This document shows positions 16,901 through 56,192 of a DNA stretch of 64,000 bases, one piece after another; position 1 is the first letter of the stretch; every line of letters starts with the position of its first letter. Source of the stretch: a virus. Lineage: Duplodnaviria; Caudoviricetes. The stretch spans positions 86,264 through 150,263 of the IMG/VR virus record IMGVR_UViG_3300033066_001283. The stretch is one strand, 5' to 3'. The notes under the pieces are model-generated. The model made no database searches and had not been told where the DNA came from. It saw only the letters and a program-made list of their open reading frames with translations. Position numbers and translations under genes: made by a program.

Positions 16901-16920
16901 CGGTTATATGAAATAGAGGA

Positions 16921-16957
16921 AGAAAATAGGGTGGACCCCCGTGAGAAAGGTCCACCC
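16921..16957 (-). terminator. Intrinsic terminator after major capsid gene
   Basis: Minus strand GGGTGGACCT...GGGTCCACCC hairpin followed by TATTTTCT. Confidence 0.75.
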
Positions 16958-16990
16958 ATGTAGGAGGTAGTACTGTTACTGCTTACCCAA

Positions 16991-18280
16991 TTAGCTGGTA
17001 ACAGTGCGGATTGTAAACAGTGCTTCCTGGTTAACGTCCACTCGAATGTTTCGGGCCACACACATACCCTTACCATTATCTTTAGCAGAGATACCAAGAT
17101 GCTGCTTAGCCTTAAGAGTGGTTGAATCTCTATACCAGTTATCCATCTGATCCATCTGGATTCCACCACGCTGTGCCATGTACAAAGAGTTATCCTTGTC
17201 AATTAGGTAGAGATCGCTAAGAACCTTAGCAGTACCAAAACCTGAACCTGTCCAAGAAACTAGTGCCTTGTTTTCAGCATAAGGAATTGCATAGTATGGA
17301 ACATACTGAACACCAAATGGGAAGTTATGACTCTGATCAAATTGAGGAGGAGTAGTCCAGACTCCAGCACCAAGCTGTCCACCGTGATAGAACTGAGCTC
17401 GAATAATTGGATCCTGTGCGAATACTGGCCACATCAATGGATGAGCTAGGAAGTGAGTAGCATTGTATCGGTTGCCCAATAGAACACCAAACATCTTCAC
17501 CAAGTCATTATAGCTGAAGGTACCATTGGCAATCAAAGTTCCACCAGAAAGACCCTTACCAGTTGTCTGGTAGGTTGTCTGCTGAGAGTTCTCAAGAGAC
17601 ACTTCTGGTTTGGGGAATGTTCGATCAATATCGTTATCGAAGACAACCTGTGCTCGCTGGGTCAAAGCCTGGAAGAGCATTGATTCCTTCTTGAGCTGGA
17701 TTGCCTGACTCATCAACCGCATATTGAGCTTAAGAATCGGCCACATGGACTGATTAATAACCTCTTCAGAAACACCCATCGAGAGACCGATCTTTCTGAT
17801 GCGGATTGATGTCATGTGCTGTTGGAAGCTGAGGCTCTGGTTAGGATACTCTTGGTTCTCAGCAACTTCAAACGCTTGAACGCTTGAAACTGTAGGGAAC
17901 TCAACCAACAGTGGATTGTTGTCAGGTAGATTAACAATATCTGCAACACTGTTCTGTAGGAACAAATTCGGCATGCGAGGCTCCTGAAGAACCTCAGAGA
18001 TGACACGTGGGAAGACGATTGATACGTCAGCTGAAGTTAAAGCTTCCTTAACAGCAAGCCCTGGATTATCAATTACCTGCTCACCAGCAAATGTTTCACC
18101 AGTAAACTGGGAATACACATACTCCTGAGCTTGATTAATCTTCTTCTGGATTTCCGCTGGAGTGTACTCACCCTCACCTTCGCCAATCTTTAGACCATTC
18201 GCTTCTGCAAATGCTTGGATTGAAGGCTCAAGTTCCTTCCTCTTCGCTTCCTGCATTAAACTAAAAATATTCTTTTTCAT
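16991..18280 (-). CDS. Major capsid protein
   Basis: 429 aa, downstream of protease; AFEVAENQEYP, IRKIGLSMGVSEEVI, ATHFLAHPLMW consistent with HK97-fold MCPs; followed by terminator. Confidence 0.8.
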   Translation of the reverse strand: MKKNIFSLMQEAKRKELEPSIQAFAEANGLKIGEGEGEYTPAEIQKKINQAQEYVYSQFTGETFAGEQVIDNPGLAVKEALTSADVSIVFPRVISEVLQEPRMPNLFLQNSVADIVNLPDNNPLLVEFPTVSSVQAFEVAENQEYPNQSLSFQQHMTSIRIRKIGLSMGVSEEVINQSMWPILKLNMRLMSQAIQLKKESMLFQALTQRAQVVFDNDIDRTFPKPEVSLENSQQTTYQTTGKGLSGGTLIANGTFSYNDLVKMFGVLLGNRYNATHFLAHPLMWPVFAQDPIIRAQFYHGGQLGAGVWTTPPQFDQSHNFPFGVQYVPYYAIPYAENKALVSWTGSGFGTAKVLSDLYLIDKDNSLYMAQRGGIQMDQMDNWYRDSTTLKAKQHLGISAKDNGKGMCVARNIRVDVNQEALFTIRTVTS

Positions 18281-31740: not shown

Positions 31741-34700
31741 CTATTTAGAGACAATAGCCTTAAATACTTCTCCTAACTTAGCAAAAGCCTCTTTTAGAAT
31801 TGGTGAAAGGTGTGATGCTGACTCTACCCCACCAATCAATCTTCCTTCTACTGCTGCCATTCTTTCAGCGTAACCAGCTTGGTATCTTTCTAATCCAGCT
31901 GCAACTATTTTTCTACCATCAATCTCTTCACCACTATCTAGAAAGAGTTTTGCAGGATCCATTCCTGCAGCTACTGCTTCTAATAGTGTTTGACCCACAT
32001 GTTCTACCAGATTATTGACCATTCCTTCATCTAATCCTTGTTCTACCCACATTCTAGCCATCGGCCTTAACTGATCAATGATGGCTGTGCCTTGGTATCT
32101 TCTAATAACTGATTCTGTCTCTTCAGTAATAGCAGTTTCAGTAGAAGTTAATGATCTTCCTGCCTGAACATCCATCCAGAGTCTACTTTTATGCTTATAA
32201 TTAATTCCATCTTTACTAAACTCAAAAAGCTTTTCTTCACGGTGTGCAACCAACCGATTATAGTTCTCAGCAGAAGAATCTTTCATGTAAGCATTGAAAG
32301 CCTGTTTGGCTGATTCTGAAGTGCTTGCAATATCTGCTAAAACATCCATCAAGCCCTTATCTTTAGCTCCACCAATTCCTTGAAAGATAAGATTTTCACT
32401 TGATTCAAATGAGAAAGGTAATCCTTGATCTTTAATTGCACCATTAGTACTTAACCATTTACCTAATTCTTTAGTGAAAGAGTAATGTTCTCCCTCATAC
32501 TCTATTCCAGTTTCCGCTTTAGTGGGCATTTGAAGCGTTCTTCTATGCTTAGCCTCCCAAGATGAGGATACACCAGAAGAGACGCCTAGAAAGCCCTCTG
32601 AGGCGTCAAAAACCCTATTTACAGAAGACTCACCATAGTGTTTATAGATTGAACTGGCCAACTCTGGCTGAAAATCCTCCATATCTGTTAAAACTAATCT
32701 CGCTTTGACGAGTGGGCTATTAGTAAGCTGCTTCATAGTCTTCATAGTAGCACTCTGATTATTGATTGTTAAGTAGTCACCAATAAATGGTTTCTCACCA
32801 TGAAGGGTGCCTAATAATCCAATTCCAAACCTAAGTCCTTCCTTATCTAAATTTCGCATCATTAAGGTTCCAACTAGAACTTTATCTAAATCCTTATCAC
32901 TATTAAGCTCATTAACTGCCCCAAGTGCCAAACTAATGTTCTCATCCCCATAAACTCCATAATTTTGCTGAAGATCTAATAATCGGTAATGCCTAAAACG
33001 CATAACATTAGTCTCAGGTGTAATAGCTAATCCACCATCAATTTGGGCTACAACATCACTAATTCCTATTGCACCTATTGTTCGTTTTACTTCACCCATA
33101 GCCTCTCTATATACATAAGCTCTATCAGCATAGTCAGCCATACCCATAATGTATGCAATGTATTCCCGATCATTAGGATTCGCCTTTAATGTATTTCTTA
33201 GTGTGGCTGGATCAGTCCCCATAGCTGTAGCTGCTTTAATTAAAATATTATTGTGCTCGAAAATGTAACTAGCAGTAATATTTTCACTTTCACCAAACAA
33301 TCTATTTGACTCAAGACCGATGCCTTTCTTAGTGAATAATGAACCAATGATTTCTGGTAGGTACTGTTCCGGTTGATCTTCTACAACTTCCCCAAACTCA
33401 TTTAACCTTCTTCTAATTGGTAGGTAGATGCCGTGTTGTATATTTTTAAATTTTGCATTAGTTGCTTTTCCAGTAGGATCTCTGAAAGTAACTAATTTAC
33501 CTTCTACCCCGTCAATAGTGTGGAGCTCAAGGAAACTGAAACGCTCATTTATGTTCTTTCTAGTTTTAGTAAACTGTTTGTAGAATTCAAGTGCTCGTGC
33601 AGATGCTTCATGAACTGGGGTTCTAACATCTTTAGTATCCCCATAACTTCTTTTGAAAAACATCTCTTCTGGGCGGAAAGCTCCAATCAACTTTCTAGCA
33701 AGTTGTTCCCTTGGAAGAATAGCTTCGTTAGCAATAACAGCTGCCTGTACCTCTAATGGCATTTGCTCAAAATACTTTCGTTGGCTGGTGCTTTTACCAA
33801 ATACCTCATCTAATGCATAATCATGAGCAACCATAGCTTGTAGCTGATGGTACATGGGTGATGAAGCTGTTCCTTTCTGGTTAAGACCAAGATTTTCAAT
33901 AGCCATCGCCACAAGCCCTTTATCACGAAGTGGATCAAATAAAGCAAATGCCCCAGTTAAAGCATTATCATCCTCCATCAATTGTGCATACTTATCTGGG
34001 TTATCTCTTGCTAACCTGGCTAGAAAATCTTTGAAAGCAATTAAGTTGGTAACATTTACCTGGTTAGTTCCGAGGCCTACTACTGTATCTCTAGCTCCAA
34101 TCTCCCACATCTTTGTGAAAGCCTTAACCTGGTTCTCTTTAGTACTGGTAAAATAATATTCCAGATCTTTTGAAATACCTTTAAACACTGGGTGGTTAGG
34201 TCCAACCTCTTTTATTCCCCGAAGAATCTTGTGTGGATCTTGCTTATCATAGTGTATAACGTAGGTTAAGTTTGGTGAGTGTGCTGGGAACTTGGTAACA
34301 AATCCTCCAAGGCTAATATTACCATTACCCACCCTCTGCTTCATCTCTTCAGTTTTTCGCTGAAGCCATGCGTTAAAATTAGCTTCAAATGTTGTAACAG
34401 ATACTTGGTCACCATCAAAGTCACGGTAGAGTAGGTAAGAAGCTTTTGGGTTCATCATAACAACCTCTTGCCCTGTATTCTCATTCACCTGAATCCTAAT
34501 ATGTATCTCAGTTCCAGGTGGAATAGGAAGCTTCTCAGTATCGGCCCAGCTTCTTCCCCTCAGTTTTGGGTCCATAGGGAGCGTAGGATCCCAAAATAGC
34601 TTCATCATTCTAGTGTGAACATTATCAGCACCAAACGCTTTACTTAAAAAGTGTTTAACTGCAGCAGGACCTTCTATTCTACTTTGATCATTTCCTAGCT

Positions 34701-34950
34701 TTGTTAAATTCCTTCCAGCTATATTCCTTAACTGGGCTAGAATCGCAGTGTTATCATCAGCAGAATTAATTCCCGCCTTCAACTGTCTCCAAGCGAAGTC
34801 AAAGCCAGCTGCAAAAATCTCCCGTTGATTCTGAACAAAGGGTATTGCTTCAAATTCGCCCCTTATCTCATCAGCAGAAAATAATCTCCCTGAAGAATCT
34901 TTAAACCATGTATTAGGTTTAAATGTATACCTTCTAGCAATCCAGCTCAT
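31741..34950 (-). CDS. Putative single-subunit two-barrel RNA polymerase (candidate virion RNAP)
   Basis: MMNP...YRDFDGDQV (D177-D181, nt 34408-34422); VGLGTN; GKWLSTNGAIK (res. 830-840); colinear motif similarity to 42506..45082. Confidence 0.65.
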   Translation of the reverse strand: MSWIARRYTFKPNTWFKDSSGRLFSADEIRGEFEAIPFVQNQREIFAAGFDFAWRQLKAGINSADDNTAILAQLRNIAGRNLTKLGNDQSRIEGPAAVKHFLSKAFGADNVHTRMMKLFWDPTLPMDPKLRGRSWADTEKLPIPPGTEIHIRIQVNENTGQEVVMMNPKASYLLYRDFDGDQVSVTTFEANFNAWLQRKTEEMKQRVGNGNISLGGFVTKFPAHSPNLTYVIHYDKQDPHKILRGIKEVGPNHPVFKGISKDLEYYFTSTKENQVKAFTKMWEIGARDTVVGLGTNQVNVTNLIAFKDFLARLARDNPDKYAQLMEDDNALTGAFALFDPLRDKGLVAMAIENLGLNQKGTASSPMYHQLQAMVAHDYALDEVFGKSTSQRKYFEQMPLEVQAAVIANEAILPREQLARKLIGAFRPEEMFFKRSYGDTKDVRTPVHEASARALEFYKQFTKTRKNINERFSFLELHTIDGVEGKLVTFRDPTGKATNAKFKNIQHGIYLPIRRRLNEFGEVVEDQPEQYLPEIIGSLFTKKGIGLESNRLFGESENITASYIFEHNNILIKAATAMGTDPATLRNTLKANPNDREYIAYIMGMADYADRAYVYREAMGEVKRTIGAIGISDVVAQIDGGLAITPETNVMRFRHYRLLDLQQNYGVYGDENISLALGAVNELNSDKDLDKVLVGTLMMRNLDKEGLRFGIGLLGTLHGEKPFIGDYLTINNQSATMKTMKQLTNSPLVKARLVLTDMEDFQPELASSIYKHYGESSVNRVFDASEGFLGVSSGVSSSWEAKHRRTLQMPTKAETGIEYEGEHYSFTKELGKWLSTNGAIKDQGLPFSFESSENLIFQGIGGAKDKGLMDVLADIASTSESAKQAFNAYMKDSSAENYNRLVAHREEKLFEFSKDGINYKHKSRLWMDVQAGRSLTSTETAITEETESVIRRYQGTAIIDQLRPMARMWVEQGLDEGMVNNLVEHVGQTLLEAVAAGMDPAKLFLDSGEEIDGRKIVAAGLERYQAGYAERMAAVEGRLIGGVESASHLSPILKEAFAKLGEVFKAIVSK

Positions 34951-36102: not shown

Positions 36103-36275
36103 ATAAAAGAATGTAGATCATCCCCTAAAAATCAAGGCATGTCTGAGTTGGTAATAGACGGGGGCATAGTCGGAATTAGACCCACGAGGGTCGTTTTTAT
36201 GGGCAATCATGCCTATAGGGAATCATCCCAGTGATGCTGTGCTCAACAGCTTTTACCTTTGTAGGAGGTAATATC

Positions 36276-36614
36276 GTGTTTAAAATGACAGTAGCCACTA
36301 TGGCAGCGATCATTCTGCGTAGTAAGGACATGGCAAGTCCTTCCATCGCTCTCCGTTCAGGCGAGCTTGTCCTCATTGATGGAGATATCAATGACGAGAA
36401 CCTTCTCATCGTGGATGCGGTGGACACCTCGTTCTGGGAACAGTGGTTGCCCAGTAATATCCCGTTCCGACATACCTTTGGAACGTTCGAGTCTCAAATG
36501 AAGCGGTACGTGAGCCGCTTCAATCGAACTGGTGTAAAGAATGTCCTCATGGCATTGTCGTATCATGAGGTGCAGTTGAAGAGGAGGTATCCAGAAGAAC
36601 TGTTTAAAGACTGA
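36276..36614 (+). CDS. Early hypothetical protein
   Basis: Start revised to GTG 36276 after TGTAGGAGGTA RBS. Confidence 0.6.
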   Translation: MFKMTVATMAAIILRSKDMASPSIALRSGELVLIDGDINDENLLIVDAVDTSFWEQWLPSNIPFRHTFGTFESQMKRYVSRFNRTGVKNVLMALSYHEVQLKRRYPEELFKD

Positions 36615-36681
36615 GCCGAAAGCCAGGGATTTCTCCCTGGTTATACATAGGGTATGCTCCTATGTACTGATGAGGCAGCAC
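36615..36681 (+). ncRNA. Hammerhead ribozyme, type II (copy 1)
   Basis: GCC-GAAA-[GCCAGGGA tttc TCCCTGGT]-TA-[TACATAGG gtatgct CCTATGTA]-CTGATGA-GGC-AGCA. Full core, stems I-III, loop I TGCT complementary to 3' AGCA; predicted cleavage after A36643. Confidence 0.92.
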
Positions 36682-36718
36682 TCTCACAACGACCTTTACC
36701 TTTGTAGGAGGTAATATT

Positions 36719-37033
36719 ATGCTATTGACATTCACCATTCCATCTACTGGGCACATACGCTCAGTGGATCTGAGGGACGAGCTTGTGCATGAGTACAAGC
36801 TTTCAATCCAAGAGATGAGCAGGTACTTTAGCCCTGCTCTTGACAGACAGCGGAGGGCAGCACACAATAAGGTGGCTGCTTCTCTTGTCCCCATTCTCAA
36901 GGAAGAACTTCCTGAGGAGGATGATGCTTCTCTCACTCAAGAGGCCCGTAGGATAGTGACGGGTTTTTTAGAAGAATCCCTGACTGGCCGGAGTATGGTC
37001 AGGGAGCTCCTGGACTCCGGTTTACTGCGTTAG
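36719..37033 (+). CDS. Early hypothetical protein
   Basis: TGTAGGAGGTA RBS. Confidence 0.65.
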   Translation: MLLTFTIPSTGHIRSVDLRDELVHEYKLSIQEMSRYFSPALDRQRRAAHNKVAASLVPILKEELPEEDDASLTQEARRIVTGFLEESLTGRSMVRELLDSGLLR

Positions 37034-37040
37034 TTTGAGT

Positions 37041-37097
37041 ATTGCGGTGAACAGTGCCTAACTGTATGGTGTGTAAATCACCTATCTGTAGGAGGTA
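37041..37097 (+). ncRNA. Unidentified conserved intergenic structured motif B (copy 1)
   Basis: TGCGGTGAACAGTGCCTAACTGTATGGTGTGTAAATCACC, near-identical to copy 2. Confidence 0.6.
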
Positions 37098-37105
37098 AGT
37101 AAATC

Positions 37106-37372
37106 ATGCGTTCAATGAACAAAGGAAGTTGGGTGTATTTACCAACTCTTATCACTCTTTCGATGCTCCAGGAGCAGAAGGACAGACACTACACCTTCCA
37201 CCCAGAGGTCTTCTTCGAGGACCTCAATCCTGGGTGGACTGAGCAGGTTCTCGGGTTCATGGCGAAGAACCCAACGTGCTCGATGAGCATCGATGCACGG
37301 TATCATCAGGACAGCTACTCTGATGGGGAAACCCTTAGAGGAGAAGGCATGGTGTATTGTCAGACTAGATAA
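37106..37372 (+). CDS. Early hypothetical protein
   Basis: TGTAGGAGGTA RBS. Confidence 0.65.
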   Translation: MRSMNKGSWVYLPTLITLSMLQEQKDRHYTFHPEVFFEDLNPGWTEQVLGFMAKNPTCSMSIDARYHQDSYSDGETLRGEGMVYCQTR

Positions 37373-37440
37373 TGCCGAAAGCCAGGGATTTCTCCCTGGT
37401 TATACATAGGGTATGCTCCTATGTACTGATGAGGCAGCAC
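37373..37440 (+). ncRNA. Hammerhead ribozyme, type II (copy 2)
   Basis: Core identical to copy 1, stem II TGCC/GGCA; begins immediately after stop codon; predicted cleavage after A37402. Confidence 0.92.
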
Positions 37441-37474
37441 TCTCACAACGTTTGTTACCGTAGGAGGTAATATA

Positions 37475-42359: not shown

Positions 42360-42505
42360 GAATGGTCGGTATGACAATCTACATCATCGCGTGTGTAATC
42401 CTCGGATTCATCTGCGCGATATTATTCATCGAGCCCCTGATCAATAAGTATCAGGAGCACAAAGCAGCAAAAGCCTAAGACACTACTGTAGGAGGTAGTA
42501 AAATC

Positions 42506-45082
42506 ATGAAATTCAAATTCACGAAGAAGGTAGATCCTTCATTTGAGTACTTTGACTGGAACGGAATTAAGGTTCCGTACAGTACAAACCAGAAGCTGGT
42601 ATTGGACGGTAAGGAGACAGTTCCTGATAAGCCACATATTAGCTACCTGAAACGTGGCAACATCCAAGCAGCCTGCGTTAGCATGGCTCGTGAAGCCCTT
42701 ATCCTATTGATGGGGGAAATGACATTTCAAGTAAGAGGATGGGATGCTCCAACAGCAGTCTCAGCCTCAGTTCCAGAAGGAGCCATTTATCTTGACAAGC
42801 GTGGCGTTCCAGTAGTCAATGAAGACTGGGGCGATCAGCACGCACTTGATGCTGATGGAGATAGGTGCTCCATCCATCGGCATAAGGATAATCCAGGACA
42901 AGCTGTACTGGTGAAATATCCTGTTACCAGCACCCCAATCACTGGTCTTATCTCCAAAGATGGCATCTTGGAGAAATTCACTGGCCTTACAGTGGAAGAT
43001 AGTCAGAAGCTGATATCTCAGTACAATACTTCAGGTGAAGTGTATGGAATTCCAGGTGATGGAATCAGTGTCGAGTTCGGCAAGAATACTCCTTATCAAG
43101 AGGAGAAGTTCTTCCTGAAGGGGCATACACCAGCACCGGTAGGCCTACTCACCAATGGCTGGAATACTTACGAGCTAGATAAAGCTCAAGCCAAGCGTGG
43201 ATGGTCTAGGAAGATTGACAGCATGTTCAATAACTATCAGAGATATGAAGATATTGAACTGGGCGGTCTGAAGGCTGCGCGTAAGGATGAAGCATCACTA
43301 GCAGACAGTGACATCACTAAGCTTGATTATGCCCTTGCATATCAGCATGCTTGGGCATTGACTGGCACAGGTAGACTTGCAGGTTTAAGTGAGCAGGCTC
43401 TTGAATGGTTCCCAGCTCTTGATGAGAAGGGCCTTAAGCAGGTGCTTACTGACATCAGCAAACTGAATGTGGATTTCAGGAAGAGAGAAGAGAATGATTT
43501 CGAGCGTCGTAAACCTACGCTACGAACATCTCCATTCCTGAAGAAGCTTTTGCCTGCCAGGTACTACTATAAGGGCAAGCTGATTGAGAACCCAGATCAT
43601 ATAACTAAAGGTGGACTGATAAAGTTCTATGAACTAAAGGCTATGCCTGGAGCTCCATCTGCAGTGGTAATCTGGCTTCAGAGACCAGAAGGCATCCCAG
43701 TTGCTCTTACGGACGTGAAACGTAAGGATCACGATCCAGAAGGCTTAGGCTTTGCATACGTTCTTTATCCTGTCTGGGATAACAGAGAACTCTACAGCAA
43801 TGACAAGACTGGCGATCAAAGTCTAATGGTCAGTGCCAAATCATGCTGGGTGCATCCTATCGACCATCTCGAGAAGTGCCTACGTCAGTTCGACAATAAG
43901 GTGATCAATCCTGAAAATGGCGTAGTAGTTTCAAGATTCCCTGAATCCTGGGAAGAGTGGAACTGGCCAAGCAGAGCAGGCAAGATCAAGAGACTGCAGA
44001 AGTTCCTCACTGACTATTGTGGCGAGTATGGTGACGTAGTAAACTGCACCATGCGTAATCGACGTCCTGAGCTACTTGAGCATAATGTCAAGTTCGCAAG
44101 AGCTTCAGCAGTGATCGATTATGGTGGAATAGAACTTACACCAGAGCAAATGTGGAAGATTGCATCTAAAGCGTCTTCTAAGCTACGACTCTGCTTAGGT
44201 GGCAATAAGCAGACCAAGAGTCACGTCAGGAAATACTGTATTGCTGATGAATCTGGTACACCTGCATGGGGAGCGTTTAAGACTAAATGCCATCCAGCTA
44301 GGCAGGGAAAGCAAAGAGCACAGCTTGTGCATGCACTGAAGGAAGTGAGAATGCGTGTGGCAATTGTCAACTGCAACACTCTCACTCAATGCTTCATCAC
44401 ACCCTCTGGTATTGAGAAACAAACCACATCATCAGGATTCCTGCCAATGTGTCTCAACTCACTAGGAGACGCTCAAGCATATCTGGACAGTCTCACTGAT
44501 CTGGAGAAGGCTAATATGCCTGATAACTTCTTGAAGGGAACCGAGTTTACAACTTGGACTGGACAGAAGGTAACAGTCTGGGTAGTAAATCCCAGAAATA
44601 CCGTTCAGGTAGGTAAGCTGATCTCAACACGAGCAGAGAAGTTCGTACCAAGAGTGATTGGGCCTGTAGTTGACCTTGATGAGTTCAATGCCAACATGGA
44701 GAATGAGCAGATCGATTTGGTCATTCCAGTCACTGAACTGATCAATAAGGGTGCACATACCAATATGCTTGAGAAGTGCACCGAACATATGATTCACTTC
44801 AAGTCATATGTGTCTGAAGATCTCACTCAGCTAGGTGATATCACCATTCCAGCAATGGTTGGAGAATTCATCTACTTCAGAAGTGGTGCTCACTCAGAGA
44901 ATACACCACCACGATGGCGAACATGCCGATACAAAGGAATTGATGGGCATGTAATCATTCGACAAATTGAAAAGCTCTATGGCAAAGAATGGGAACAAGA
45001 AGTGAACATTCTTCCTGCACTTGAGCTTCTTGACTCAATGAAGAAGATCATGAAACGTTGTGGCATCAAATTCAACCGCTAG
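42506..45082 (+). CDS. Putative single-subunit two-barrel RNA polymerase (candidate non-virion RNAP)
   Basis: HALDADGDRC (D115-D119, nt 42848-42862); VGLLTN; beta-like GKLISTRAEK (K704..K712, same spacing as GDKxxxRHGNKG), IDLVIP, PAMVGEFIY. Confidence 0.7.
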   Translation: MKFKFTKKVDPSFEYFDWNGIKVPYSTNQKLVLDGKETVPDKPHISYLKRGNIQAACVSMAREALILLMGEMTFQVRGWDAPTAVSASVPEGAIYLDKRGVPVVNEDWGDQHALDADGDRCSIHRHKDNPGQAVLVKYPVTSTPITGLISKDGILEKFTGLTVEDSQKLISQYNTSGEVYGIPGDGISVEFGKNTPYQEEKFFLKGHTPAPVGLLTNGWNTYELDKAQAKRGWSRKIDSMFNNYQRYEDIELGGLKAARKDEASLADSDITKLDYALAYQHAWALTGTGRLAGLSEQALEWFPALDEKGLKQVLTDISKLNVDFRKREENDFERRKPTLRTSPFLKKLLPARYYYKGKLIENPDHITKGGLIKFYELKAMPGAPSAVVIWLQRPEGIPVALTDVKRKDHDPEGLGFAYVLYPVWDNRELYSNDKTGDQSLMVSAKSCWVHPIDHLEKCLRQFDNKVINPENGVVVSRFPESWEEWNWPSRAGKIKRLQKFLTDYCGEYGDVVNCTMRNRRPELLEHNVKFARASAVIDYGGIELTPEQMWKIASKASSKLRLCLGGNKQTKSHVRKYCIADESGTPAWGAFKTKCHPARQGKQRAQLVHALKEVRMRVAIVNCNTLTQCFITPSGIEKQTTSSGFLPMCLNSLGDAQAYLDSLTDLEKANMPDNFLKGTEFTTWTGQKVTVWVVNPRNTVQVGKLISTRAEKFVPRVIGPVVDLDEFNANMENEQIDLVIPVTELINKGAHTNMLEKCTEHMIHFKSYVSEDLTQLGDITIPAMVGEFIYFRSGAHSENTPPRWRTCRYKGIDGHVIIRQIEKLYGKEWEQEVNILPALELLDSMKKIMKRCGIKFNR

Positions 45083-45182
45083 GGTTTTGTGGTTGTTTTT
45101 GGGCTCTTGTGAGCTATGTCCAATGTTTTAGTGATGAGGTTTGGGGGTAACCCCGTTAACAACAATTAGGAAACACAACATC

Positions 45183-45992
45183 ATGTCATTCAGAGAACAA
45201 TTGAAGCAGACAACTCAGATCAAGCCTGAGGTCATAGACCTCGGTATCGATCACGACGTACTTGCTACTTCTGGAAGCACACCACTTGCAGTAGCAGTCA
45301 TTCCTCTCAAGCAGAAATTCGAAGGGAAAGTCTTTGAGTATTCTACCCCTATTAAAGGGGGCGGATCTCAACGGATTCCCTACGAAGTCTGGGCCGCCAA
45401 GTTCATCGCCCTTAAAAGCCGGTCTACTAAGATGGGCGAAAAGGGCGAACCCACAACTCTCGTATACGTTGGATTCCTTGGGAAGCCAATCAAGCGAGAC
45501 GACAAAACTGGGGAACCGCTGAAGGATAAAGATGGCAAGTTCATCTATGACGACCATGACATCCCGGAAGAGATGTGCATGGAAATCGATGGTGACCTTC
45601 TTCCAAATCTATGCGAGTTTAGACTTGCATGGGGCGTCAACTTCCAAAAGAGCGCAACCAAGCGGCTTAGTGTGCCAGAGATCAAGATCGGCATGAGCAG
45701 AAATGTTCCAGCCGACCGCAAATCTGGAGACAAAGGACAAACCTATCTTAACGAAGATTGGGACGTAATCCCATTCGGTCGTGGATTGCTCCATTGGGCA
45801 CACAATCACTTGCTAGTTGGTATGGAAGATGGGAATCAGACCCTGACAACTATCTACAATTCCATTCCACAGGAAGAAGTGCGTGACAAGAATGCTGAGG
45901 GCGACTCCGTAGCTGGCGATATCATTGATCCCGAAAAGGTCAATGAGGCCGCAGACGCAGCTGAGCCAGTCGGAGTGTCAGTCGACGAGTAA
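45183..45992 (+). CDS. Hypothetical protein, possible ssDNA-binding protein
   Basis: Beta-rich, acidic C-terminal tail; follows RNAP-like gene; start revised to ATG 45183. Confidence 0.35.
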   Translation: MSFREQLKQTTQIKPEVIDLGIDHDVLATSGSTPLAVAVIPLKQKFEGKVFEYSTPIKGGGSQRIPYEVWAAKFIALKSRSTKMGEKGEPTTLVYVGFLGKPIKRDDKTGEPLKDKDGKFIYDDHDIPEEMCMEIDGDLLPNLCEFRLAWGVNFQKSATKRLSVPEIKIGMSRNVPADRKSGDKGQTYLNEDWDVIPFGRGLLHWAHNHLLVGMEDGNQTLTTIYNSIPQEEVRDKNAEGDSVAGDIIDPEKVNEAADAAEPVGVSVDE

Positions 45993-46430
45993 GTGAAGAG
46001 GAATGGGGAAGTTCGAAAGGGCTCTCCCAAGCATCAGCAACTCAAACAGCAAACGAAACAGATGCACAAAACGATACCGGTCTAGGATAGGTATCGGGGA
46101 AGGGAAGTGTCTAGGATACAACCCTTCCCAAAAAATTTCTTATCGCTCGAAATCTAATTGCTAGGCAATGAAATTAAGAGTGATGAGGAATGGGAGTACA
46201 GCAAGTGGATGCTCGAAAGACCGTCTGACTTGTGTCTTACTCTCTTACTTTTGCCTGTACAGAGTCGAAGGAGAAATCCGGAGCAAAACAGGCCTGGAAG
46301 CCATCAGAGAAAGCAGGTTAACATAGATCTAGGCGGAGAGACCCCGCTAGGGCAGCAATGCCCTAAAGACGACCACGTGCGTCCCAGGATCCTTAAGATT
46401 TTTACCCCGTCCAACACAAGCAGAGCCATA

Positions 46431-46456
46431 GGGGAGCAATACGCTCCCCACTTTTT
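46431..46456 (+). terminator. Intrinsic terminator
   Basis: GGGGAGC aatac GCTCCCC a CTTTTT. Confidence 0.7.
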
Positions 46457-46459
46457 CGA

Positions 46460-46550
46460 TTTCTACCTTCACTACCTCCTACAACAGTGACACGGTAGGG
46501 GGTCAGGCAACTGGCCCCAACCAATTTCAGGGTGCAATCCCACCTATCGT
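46460..46550 (+). ncRNA. Candidate small RNA presenting an anti-RBS loop
   Basis: TCACT-ACCTCCTACAAC-AGTGA hairpin, then GGGGTCAG gcaa CTGGCCCC and GGG tgcaat CCC. Confidence 0.55.
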
Positions 46551-47048
46551 AGATCCTCTCCCCAAAAGAAGAAACACGCACCCTGATTCAATTTCCGGCC
46601 AGCAATGGACGGAGAGTACTCTAACAGGAAATCCCTGGTATGAACTGTTAGAAGAATAATATCAGGGCAAAGGACCCATGTGATAGAGACCTTGTGGTGA
46701 TGAAATGGGATTAAACCACAAACTTGGCCAAGGTTGAATGGTCTTAACAAGATGCTAAGTCAACAATACGCTCTTGGGATTTAATGTTGATTTCCAACAC
46801 AGCCTGCTGCACTGCAAAGTGTCTCAGGTCCTTGCGGAAGCAGGAACATATGCAAACTCACACTGTGAACTGAGTAAGCGGGCTTCTCTTTTGCGTCGAG
46901 CGAGAGGAAGCTGACTCAACATAGTTGAAGAAGCGAGATGACTAAATCACAGGCTTAAGATCGGTATCCTTTCGGGATGCTTTAGTCAAGAAGAAGTGAC
47001 GAATTATTCTGTCTGAGCGAAGAATCAACTGATGGTTGCGGGATCTAC
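46549..47048 (+). ncRNA. Candidate ~500-nt structured non-coding RNA
   Basis: Closing helix GTAGATCC/GGATCTAC, many nested stems, crossing helices, no credible ORF. Confidence 0.5.
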
Positions 47049-47348
47049 CCTATTTAAATCTCGAATCATTTTTGGCGCCAATACGCCCTTAGTCTGGAAA
47101 TCTGAGGGATCAATCAAACTGGTAATTTCCAACTACTAGGAGTACACAGAATGGTGTGTACTCAGCGCCATCAGAGCAATTGCCGAAGCTCTGGAGTTGA
47201 ACATACGTAATACATGTGCATGTCTAAATACAGGTATGTACTGGGTAGTCAAACCGAGAAAATATTGAGAGGCGTTTTAACCAATAACGTAGTTTCAGTC
47301 ATGACTGAAACTGGATGTGTTCAACTTACCCTATTTCCAATCAAAGCC

Positions 47349-48101
47349 ATGAAACTAATACTTGCCAGTATAATGATCGTTTCTGTTGCCCACGCAAATT
47401 CCTTTGGGAAAATCATGTGCGTAGGTGACTCACTAACTGCAGGTGGTGCTAATCCACCAGCATATAGACAGGAGCTGTTCAATTTACTGACAAGCGGGTT
47501 AGATACTTTCCAATTCGTTGGCCCAAATGACTGGGGCTACTTTGGATCAGTACATGCTAACATTCATGCAGGTTTCGGTGGATGGAGTAGTTACCAATTG
47601 TGTAATGGTAACACATTATCTCCTTCTTCTGGTAAATTATCTGATTGGTTGAGTTTCGCTCCCAATACAGTAATACTCATGTGTGGTACCAATGATTACT
47701 GGGATAATTATTCCGGCATTGGCTACTGGGATACAGTTTCACAGAATAACCTTTGGAATAACATGGTTCCAAGGTACACAAATCTACTGAATCAAGTATT
47801 CAGTAGCGGTGCTTCGCTTGTCGTCTTTGTTGCTCCACCAAAGTATCTTGCTGATAATTATGGGCCGAGATATGAGTATCTCCATCAATTATCAGTAGTT
47901 GTAAAGAGTGTTTATACGACATTCTATCAACAACGTAAGAACATCAAGTTCGTTGATCTATGGTCAGTAGCATCTGATCAACTTGGAGTCGACCTAGGTT
48001 CTGATAACATTCACTGGAACAATAATGGTGCTAAGAAAGCAGCAACATGTATTTATGGTGGGATGAAAAGAACATTAGGGATGAGGATAGAGACACAATG
48101 A
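47349..48101 (+). CDS. Secreted SGNH/GDSL hydrolase (esterase)
   Basis: Signal peptide MKLILASIMIVSVAHA, GDSLT, MCGTND, DNIHWN; start revised to 47349. Confidence 0.85.
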   Translation: MKLILASIMIVSVAHANSFGKIMCVGDSLTAGGANPPAYRQELFNLLTSGLDTFQFVGPNDWGYFGSVHANIHAGFGGWSSYQLCNGNTLSPSSGKLSDWLSFAPNTVILMCGTNDYWDNYSGIGYWDTVSQNNLWNNMVPRYTNLLNQVFSSGASLVVFVAPPKYLADNYGPRYEYLHQLSVVVKSVYTTFYQQRKNIKFVDLWSVASDQLGVDLGSDNIHWNNNGAKKAATCIYGGMKRTLGMRIETQ

Positions 48102-56015: not shown

Positions 56016-56192
56016 TGACCAACTTCCGTTGGTCAGAACCCCGAGGAAATTAAGCCTAAGGCTTAAATCTATACCGTGGAAATTAAGCCTAAGGCTTATC
56101 TCTAACCGTGGAAATCATCCTAAGGCTTAAATCTATATCGAGGAACGTTAATTTAAGGCTTAAATCTATAGGAACGTTATTCTAAGGCTATA
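56016..56192. repeat. Five ~32-bp tandem repeats with palindromic core, preceded by an inverted repeat (candidate origin iterons)
   Basis: Units at 56041, 56074, 56106, 56138, 56171: CCG(A/T)GGAAATTAAGCCTAAGGCTTAAATCTATA; TGACCAAC ttcc GTTGGTCA at 56016-56035. Confidence 0.8.

Follow-up and report, generated by a model that had tools for sequence, protein, structure and literature searches.

We found that an uncultured phage carries, on the plus strand of its genome, a conserved noncoding hairpin whose open loop is complementary to the phage's own early RBS, with an exact 13-nt match to the start region of a polymerase-like gene. A second copy of the same 13 nt lies in the 3' untranslated region (3'UTR) of the major capsid gene. 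Judging from these sequences, RNA pairing is probably a means by which the phage lowers early translation. We propose, tentatively and with slightly less than even confidence, that the hairpin acts as an anti-RBS element that represses the polymerase gene and a group of early genes sharing an RBS tag.

The hairpin lies in an ORF-free region of a large phage genome

The genome, of about 150 kb, is represented by a linear IMG/VR record of 150,263 bp with a GC content of 37%. We analyzed its final 64 kb (the window, 64,000 nt), and all positions given below are those of the window. The phage is large and probably virulent. Structural genes (portal, terminase, tail sheath, and major capsid protein) occupy the minus strand to about 36.1 kb, and a block of small plus-strand genes begins at 36.2 kb. 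The anti-RBS hairpin lies within this plus-strand block, 3' of a gene for an 858-aa protein (42506-45082) and a gene for a 269-aa protein (45183-45992); a GDSL lipase gene and two tRNAs follow it on the 3' side. The listed open reading frame (ORF) 47214-48101 over-extends the lipase gene. Its conserved start is ATG 47349, which is followed by a signal peptide and has no Shine-Dalgarno (SD) sequence upstream; this start is supported by the relative L002, described below, and by a near-identical strain. Because the lipase gene starts at ATG 47349, the ORF-free region spans 45993-47348 and is longer than it had seemed at first. At 56057-56173, a count of repeated words found three plus-strand copies of AAGGCTTAAATCTATA, spaced 33 to 64 nt apart.

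We found no match for the 858-aa protein in Pfam, PHROG, or PDB sequences. The motif DxDGD is invariant in 19 homologues of the protein. An AlphaFold model (pLDDT, 81.5; pTM, 0.80) gave only weak Foldseek matches (E, 0.01 to 0.13), 49 of the top 50 of which were second-largest subunits of multisubunit RNA polymerases. We read the protein as a single-chain two-barrel RNA polymerase, presumably resembling YonO of SPbeta, and we refer to its gene as the polymerase gene. A 1,069-aa paralogue is encoded on the minus strand (31741-34950). The ATG of its gene lacks an SD and has CTCTATTT 7 nt upstream. Expression of the paralogue therefore appears to be of the late type, in contrast to that of the 858-aa gene, which is led by an SD.

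All eight occurrences of CTCTATTT are on the minus strand (16911, 29439, 34957, and five more), in several cases 8 to 20 nt before late starts that lack an SD. Words similar to CTCTATTT also precede the gene after the capsid gene in the relatives L020-L023 and L026. This motif may be a family-wide late promoter; its total count is not above chance, and it is the strand bias that stands out.

An open loop displays the complement of the polymerase RBS

The hairpin and the elements next to it are as follows.

46463-46498, plus strand: anti-RBS hairpin, consisting of CUACC, a bulged U, UCACU, the 12-nt loop ACCUCCUACAAC, AGUGA, CAC, and GGUAG
46469-46473, 46474-46485, and 46486-46490, plus strand: upper stem and loop (UCACU, loop ACCUCCUACAAC, and AGUGA, respectively), read from the sequence
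46471-46483, plus strand: 13-nt core ACUACCUCCUACA, the complement of the polymerase gene RBS
46499-46518, plus strand: 8-bp hairpin GGGGUCAG-GCAA-CUGGCCCC in the consensus fold, abutting the anti-RBS hairpin and identical in L002
46527-46586, plus strand: domain closed in the consensus fold by a 9-bp helix, UCAGGGUGC (46527-46535) with GCACCCUGA (46578-46586)

A sequence-only reading of this DNA had described a TCACT/AGTGA hairpin exposing an anti-RBS loop and had claimed 13 of 13 pairs between the core and the polymerase RBS. Both claims held: the hairpin is present, and ACUACCUCCUACA (46471-46483) is, at every one of its 13 nt, the reverse complement of 42487-42499. In contexts of 341 nt and 628 nt, both the minimum-energy fold and the centroid fold show the loop unpaired, and so does the consensus fold with L002. 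In the consensus fold, the lower stem CUACC (46463-46467)/GGUAG (46494-46498) extends the hairpin, with the bulged U and an internal loop, and all five of its pairs are kept in both the window and L002.

The same reading had placed a compact closed domain after the hairpin. The GCAA-capped hairpin at 46499-46518 is real, and because it contains a U-G pair, it works only on the plus strand. The proposed closing helix, ACGGTAGG/CCTATCGT (46492-46499 with 46543-46550), is not conserved, and we rejected it; L002 has lost three of its eight pairs, and it competes with CUACC/GGUAG for GGUAG. The 9-bp helix listed above is identical in the window and L002, so the two sequences give no covariation signal for or against it. 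A resemblance of the loop to the 3' end of 16S rRNA, also pointed out earlier, is confined to the 7-nt core ACCUCCU in a comparison with a generic 16S tail; nothing beyond this core is shared.

The loop matches an RBS tag of the early gene block

The proposed targets of the loop are all start regions on the plus strand.

42481-42508, plus strand: proposed main target, with CACUACUGUAGGAGGUAGUAAA ahead of ATG 42506 of the 858-aa polymerase-like gene
36260-37468, plus strand: tagged early RBSs (U)UGUAGGAGGUA at 36260, 36703, 37087, and 37460, proposed secondary targets
Before starts 37701, 38211, 40587, and 40999, plus strand: weaker tags, proposed secondary targets

The polymerase RBS (42487-42499) lies 6 nt upstream of ATG 42506, and with flanks included, 19 of 22 nt can pair between the hairpin and this start region. 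A weak local hairpin in the polymerase leader holds GUAGGA in its loop. Several tagged leaders also have weak hairpins that expose GUAGGA in a loop and would permit contact between loops; these folds are not individually significant. The sequence (U)UGUAGGAGGUA is a private RBS tag of the genes at 36 to 42.5 kb, where nine complementary genes carry the tag UGUAGGAGGU.

We compared the loop with 68 start regions. At least 8 contiguous complementary nt (8 to 13) were found at 10 of them, and 9 of these 10 are in the 36- to 42.5-kb block; no match of a generic 16S tail to any of the 68 exceeds 7 nt. When start regions were ranked by net cofold gain, with the cost of unfolding included, the polymerase start region came first of 68 (-15.2 kcal/mol) and seven of the top eight were in the same block, with the caveat that any C/U-rich loop scores well against strong SD sites. 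A scan of the whole genome on both strands gave the same top sites. As in sRNA genes, then, the folds, the cofolds, and the 68 start regions show an accessible seed that is complementary to target start regions.

Within repeats upstream of tagged early RBSs, we also observed two plus-strand matches to Hammerhead_II, both below the gathering score of 37 bits (36614-36684, 27.7 bits, E of 0.03; 37373-37443, 26.0 bits, E of 0.09).

A terminator precedes the hairpin

The sequence-only reading had also noted a terminator directly upstream, and a scan found it.

46431-46457, plus strand: intrinsic-terminator-like hairpin and U-run, GGGGAGC-AAUAC-GCUCCCC (46431-46449) with the tail ACUUUUUC

The 7-bp stem has six G-C pairs and is directly followed by ACUUUUUC, which is the arrangement of an intrinsic terminator, a GC-rich stem-loop with a U-run. 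It is one of only about three strong plus-strand terminator-like sites between 35 and 50 kb. In L002, a compensatory change from G-C to A-U preserves the stem, the loop has 8 additional nt, and the U-run is still present. This site probably ends the polymerase operon and its structured trailer.

The anti-RBS hairpin begins 6 nt past the U-run. In a scan limited to sigma-70-like promoters, we found none on the plus strand upstream of 46463, and the late-type motif CTCTATTT is absent from the plus strand at the hairpin. From 46458 to the lipase gene, the plus strand has no terminator-like site. Because a terminator lies upstream and no promoter is recognizable, the hairpin could be transcribed only by read-through, from an unrecognized promoter, or through processing. 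The earlier idea of a multitarget anti-SD RNA stands only in part. The loop is tuned to the early RBS tag of the phage, but the discrete small RNA gene, which would need a recognizable promoter and a terminator of its own, was not borne out.

The hairpin is one module of a large structured region

The hairpin lies in the following region.

45993-47348, plus strand: ORF-free, modular, structured noncoding region of 1,356 nt, defined by stops, folds, synteny, and covariation

The hairpin stretch is noncoding, with all three stop codons in all six frames. Because all three stops are present in all frames, an alternative genetic code was ruled out. A plus-strand ORF at 46158-46490 was also rejected; it is not intact in L002, to which its alignment is broken by several indels.

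On the plus strand, the region folds more stably than shuffled sequences (z-scores of -4.5 for 341 nt and -6.4 for 628 nt), versus -2.1 on the minus strand. Its GC content is 45 to 51%, versus 37% for the genome. It contains GCAA-capped hairpins and many G-U pairs, which become A-C mismatches on the opposite strand. These G-U pairs and GCAA loops fit the plus strand only and mark it as the RNA strand. Compensatory changes affect 11 of 92 predicted pairs in the 5' part, for which three sequences could be compared, and 4 of 48 around the hairpin, one of them in the terminator stem. The build is modular: the near-identical strain L009 lacks about 46930-47340 (the 3' module), and L002 lacks about 46738-46790 and 46930-47040. 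The hairpin is one module of a conserved, covarying, structured region of 1.36 kb and not a self-contained small gene.

A search of Rfam 15 with the whole window at the gathering score returned two tRNAs only, and 45800-47400 at an E of ≤10 returned four weak unrelated matches and no family, OLE included. The surrounding 1.36-kb region is a well-supported large structured RNA without a match to a known family.

Other features of the region were seen along the way. Two plus-strand hairpins at 46072-46129 have the conserved loop GUCUAGGAU on stems that covary in three sequences; the GUCUAGGAU loops look like an RBS or a GGA-type protein-binding loop. A possible 19-codon micro-ORF (47151-47210, plus strand) has AGGAG 8 nt upstream. 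Its frame is kept in L002, with ATG changed to ATT and a GTG two codons upstream; a single synonymous change makes this weak evidence. The motif (A/G)GUGAUGAGG(A/U)AUGGGG occurs on the plus strand at 45132 and 46181, with a variant at about 46003, shortly past stop codons of the polymerase operon; this motif may mark a site of processing, form a k-turn, or resemble a promoter.

The capsid 3'UTR carries a second copy of the 13-mer

We found the 13-mer at only three places in 150 kb: the polymerase RBS, the hairpin in the gene-free gap, and the capsid 3'UTR.

16959-16971, minus strand: another copy of ACUACCUCCUACA in sense orientation, within the 3'UTR that follows the major capsid gene (16991-18280)
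16920-16957, minus strand: the capsid gene's strong intrinsic terminator (stem of 12 bp, then UAUUUUCUU)

The capsid gene was identified by phrog_3922 and PF25209. On the minus strand, the order is the stop codon (16993-16991), the 13-mer (16971-16959), and the terminator (16957-16920), so that the 13-mer lies between the stop codon and an intrinsic terminator, as a 3'UTR-borne seed would, and ends 1 nt before the terminator. The copy thus belongs to a message that is usually the most abundant of the late ones. Both antisense copies, in the gap and in the capsid 3'UTR, are noncoding and have the same orientation as the transcription around them, and each has an intrinsic terminator next to it.

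Under a first-order model, 0.0055 further copies of the 13-mer are expected on both strands of 150 kb, and two were found. In this AT-rich genome, recurring 13-mers are not unusual in themselves: 33 words occur at least three times, versus 3 to 9 in shuffles. The capsid 3'UTR is identical in the near-identical strains L037-L039, and the copy was seen only in near-identical strains. Between the capsid stop and the terminator, CCUCC-like words (UCCUCCC, ACCUCUC, and ACCUCCGGCCUCCUUA) occur in the distant relatives L017/L018, L016, and L028. We rejected a family-wide anti-SD in capsid 3'UTRs, since these words are found in just 3 of about 10 distinct relatives and are suggestive only.

Loop and target are both conserved in one informative relative

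A protein search with the 858-aa gene product retrieved one relative at 99% identity and one at 67%, with all others at 36% or less. The 67% relative, L002, is an 8.9-kb Logan contig and the only informative relative. It keeps the gene order of the window: the polymerase gene, a gene for a 268-aa protein, about 1.3 kb without genes, and the lipase gene. DNA identity between the window and L002 is 66.5% for the polymerase gene, 48% for the next gene, and 84% for the lipase gene. The core of the ORF-free region (46243-46592) is about 92% identical, versus 48 to 84% for the neighboring genes. Because identity between the two sequences is mosaic, the high identity of the region could come partly from recent exchange.

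Conservation of the loop in relatives had been suggested as a check on the hairpin, and we carried it out: L002 keeps the stems and, apart from one inserted G, the loop. Across 46450-46540, the only differences are this G and a change of the internal loop from CAC to UCC, both at positions that take part in no pair of the hairpin or of the duplex predicted with the mRNA. On the target side, a 24-nt block around the polymerase RBS is identical in L002, and the rest of the spacer is 70.6% identical. As neither loop nor RBS varies in the sole informative relative, the pair gives no loop-RBS covariation signal.

We found no further homologue by blastn against INPHARED phages, by searching IMG/VR with the neighboring proteins and the terminase, or by pattern searches of IMG/VR and JGI metagenomes. 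Six IMG/VR matches to a 17-mer of the loop were dismissed as chance matches without homology. The contigs of distant polymerase relatives (31 to 36% identical) have no nucleotide homology to the RNA and no antisense copy of their own polymerase RBS; a few matches of 10 to 11 nt are at chance level. An ACCTCCTACAA match in L004 is a chance match, because it lies inside a plausible coding gene.

Alternative explanations for the complementarity

We considered whether the loop might serve the large RNA itself. It could be a structural or protein-binding feature, such as a decoy for a ribosome factor or a tertiary-contact loop, with the complementarity to RBSs following from a shared relatedness to SD sequences. 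The hairpin is indeed a module of a conserved, covarying, GC-enriched RNA with several GCAA loops and no promoter of its own, and an anti-SD mimic inside a large noncoding RNA has a precedent in OLE RNA (PMC12054373). We think this explanation unlikely, however, as the likeness to the generic 16S tail covers only ACCUCCU, whereas the match to the phage RBS runs to 13 nt and takes in the non-16S extension UGUA. Moreover, the capsid 3'UTR copy sits in an unrelated context without the surrounding fold, and the OLE mimic is paired with an SD-like strand, whereas the phage loop is open and the region matches no Rfam family. A partner within the region would make the loop a folding or sponge device and not a regulator of early genes. 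Here the candidates are the two GUCUAGGAU loops in 45993-46260 and UAGGAG at 47136, given that three sequences show conserved UCUAGGAU loops on covarying stems and that UAGGA is able to pair with UCCUA of the anti-RBS loop. There seems to be only a small chance that this is the role of the loop: internal pairing would amount to just 5 to 6 bp, versus 13 with the polymerase RBS; the 628-nt folds leave the loop free; the terminator separates the upstream UCUAGGAU loops from the hairpin; and the 3' module is missing in L009.

The three copies could also reflect a site acting at the DNA level, for example for binding of a phage protein, or relics of inverted duplication of an RBS that have no RNA function. 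The presence of the 13-mer in both orientations and the abundance of repeated 13-mers in this genome would fit such an origin, as would the flanks of the gap copy, which resemble the RBS flanks at 20 of 23 nt, as an inverted duplication would leave them. But this 13-mer is GC balanced, with the very low expectation given above; its antisense copies are both noncoding, in the sense of local transcription, and next to terminators; and the gap copy is placed precisely in a conserved hairpin's loop, within an RNA whose helices covary. We regard an origin of this kind as quite improbable. Finally, we considered whether the sequence might simply serve as the RBS of a small gene on the minus strand, one of the findings that, according to the sequence-only reading, would overturn its proposal. 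The minus strand does read UGUAGGAGGUAGU, the phage's own early RBS, and a 41-aa ORF (46472-46347) lies downstream of it. Yet the GTG of this ORF is only 1 nt past GGAGGU, the ORF traverses the terminator hairpin, and its L002 counterpart departs from it after some 10 codons, as would be expected if the 8-nt insertion shifts the frame. Folding and G-U pairs favor the plus strand as the RNA strand, and we found no conserved minus-strand ORF. We give this possibility almost no credence.

A proposed model for repression of early genes

According to the repression model that we favor, the anti-RBS loop would be carried on a long, structured, noncoding plus-strand RNA just past the terminator of the polymerase operon. 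This RNA would be made by read-through, by a phage polymerase, or by processing. The 12-nt loop and adjoining stem bases would pair with the polymerase start region over 13 contiguous bp (19 of 22 with flanks), probably starting as a loop-loop contact with the GUAGGA loop of the weak hairpin in the mRNA. The loop could also pair, over 8 to 12 bp, with other early genes that bear the private tag UUGUAGGAGGUA. Pairing might occur in trans or, on read-through transcripts, in cis. Occlusion of the SD would lower translation, and perhaps stability, of the polymerase and tagged messages. The 13-mer in the 3'UTR of the capsid mRNA would exert this repression at the late stage and so couple synthesis of the polymerase to late transcription.

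A more far-reaching version, which we consider rather improbable, is that the 1.36-kb region represents a new class of large structured phage RNA that serves as a hub of translation control, with its open anti-RBS loop and RBS-like UCUAGGAU loops. Together with the capsid copy, it would form a feedback circuit in which the early two-barrel RNA polymerase drives late transcripts and these silence the polymerase message and the whole tagged early regulon.

Comparison with known systems

What is known of early-gene shut-off in large virulent phages mainly concerns proteins, as in T4, in which RegA and RegB carry out posttranscriptional shut-off at the RBSs of early phage messages. The T4 agents are a repressor (RegA) and a nuclease that cuts GGAG (RegB), whereas the agent proposed here is an RNA. 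If the repression model is true, it would describe an RNA-only timing circuit, in which the mirror image of a private RBS tag is backed by a copy in the capsid message. It would also account for early RBSs that are conserved beyond the needs of 16S pairing.

Among the closest known systems is the c4 antisense RNA of P1 and P7, in which complementary bases displayed in loops pair around an RBS and block translation (PMC12197685). Like c4, the hairpin is phage encoded and would act on the phage's own message, with regulator and target on the same strand of one region; its loop complements the RBS region of one of the phage's own genes. In contrast, c4, which belongs to lysogenic immunity, is released by processing as a short RNA and acts on an antirepressor message, while the hairpin lies downstream of its target in a 1.36-kb structured region and has many possible targets and a copy in the capsid 3'UTR. 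Neither the whole window nor 45800-47400 gave a family match in Rfam that would indicate homology to c4.

In RsaE/RoxS and other Rsa RNAs of Staphylococcus aureus, which are C-rich-loop sRNAs of Bacillota, an unpaired C/U-rich motif in a hairpin loop binds the SD and prevents formation of the initiation complex (PMC2790875). The hairpin resembles these RNAs in that several targets share one motif. Rsa-type sRNAs, however, are discrete chromosomal genes with UCCC motifs, whereas the phage seed is a 12- to 13-nt exact complement of a private RBS tag. OLE RNA, whose P6 region is an anti-SD mimic that binds bS21 (PMC12054373), is likewise a large structured noncoding RNA carrying CCUCCU. Its mimic is base paired to an SD-like strand and serves protein binding, whereas the mimic described here is an open loop that matches beyond the 16S-like core. 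We suggest that the hairpin works like c4 and the C-rich-loop sRNAs, and it is a member of neither group. Its unusual parts are its embedding in a large structured RNA and its twin in the capsid 3'UTR.
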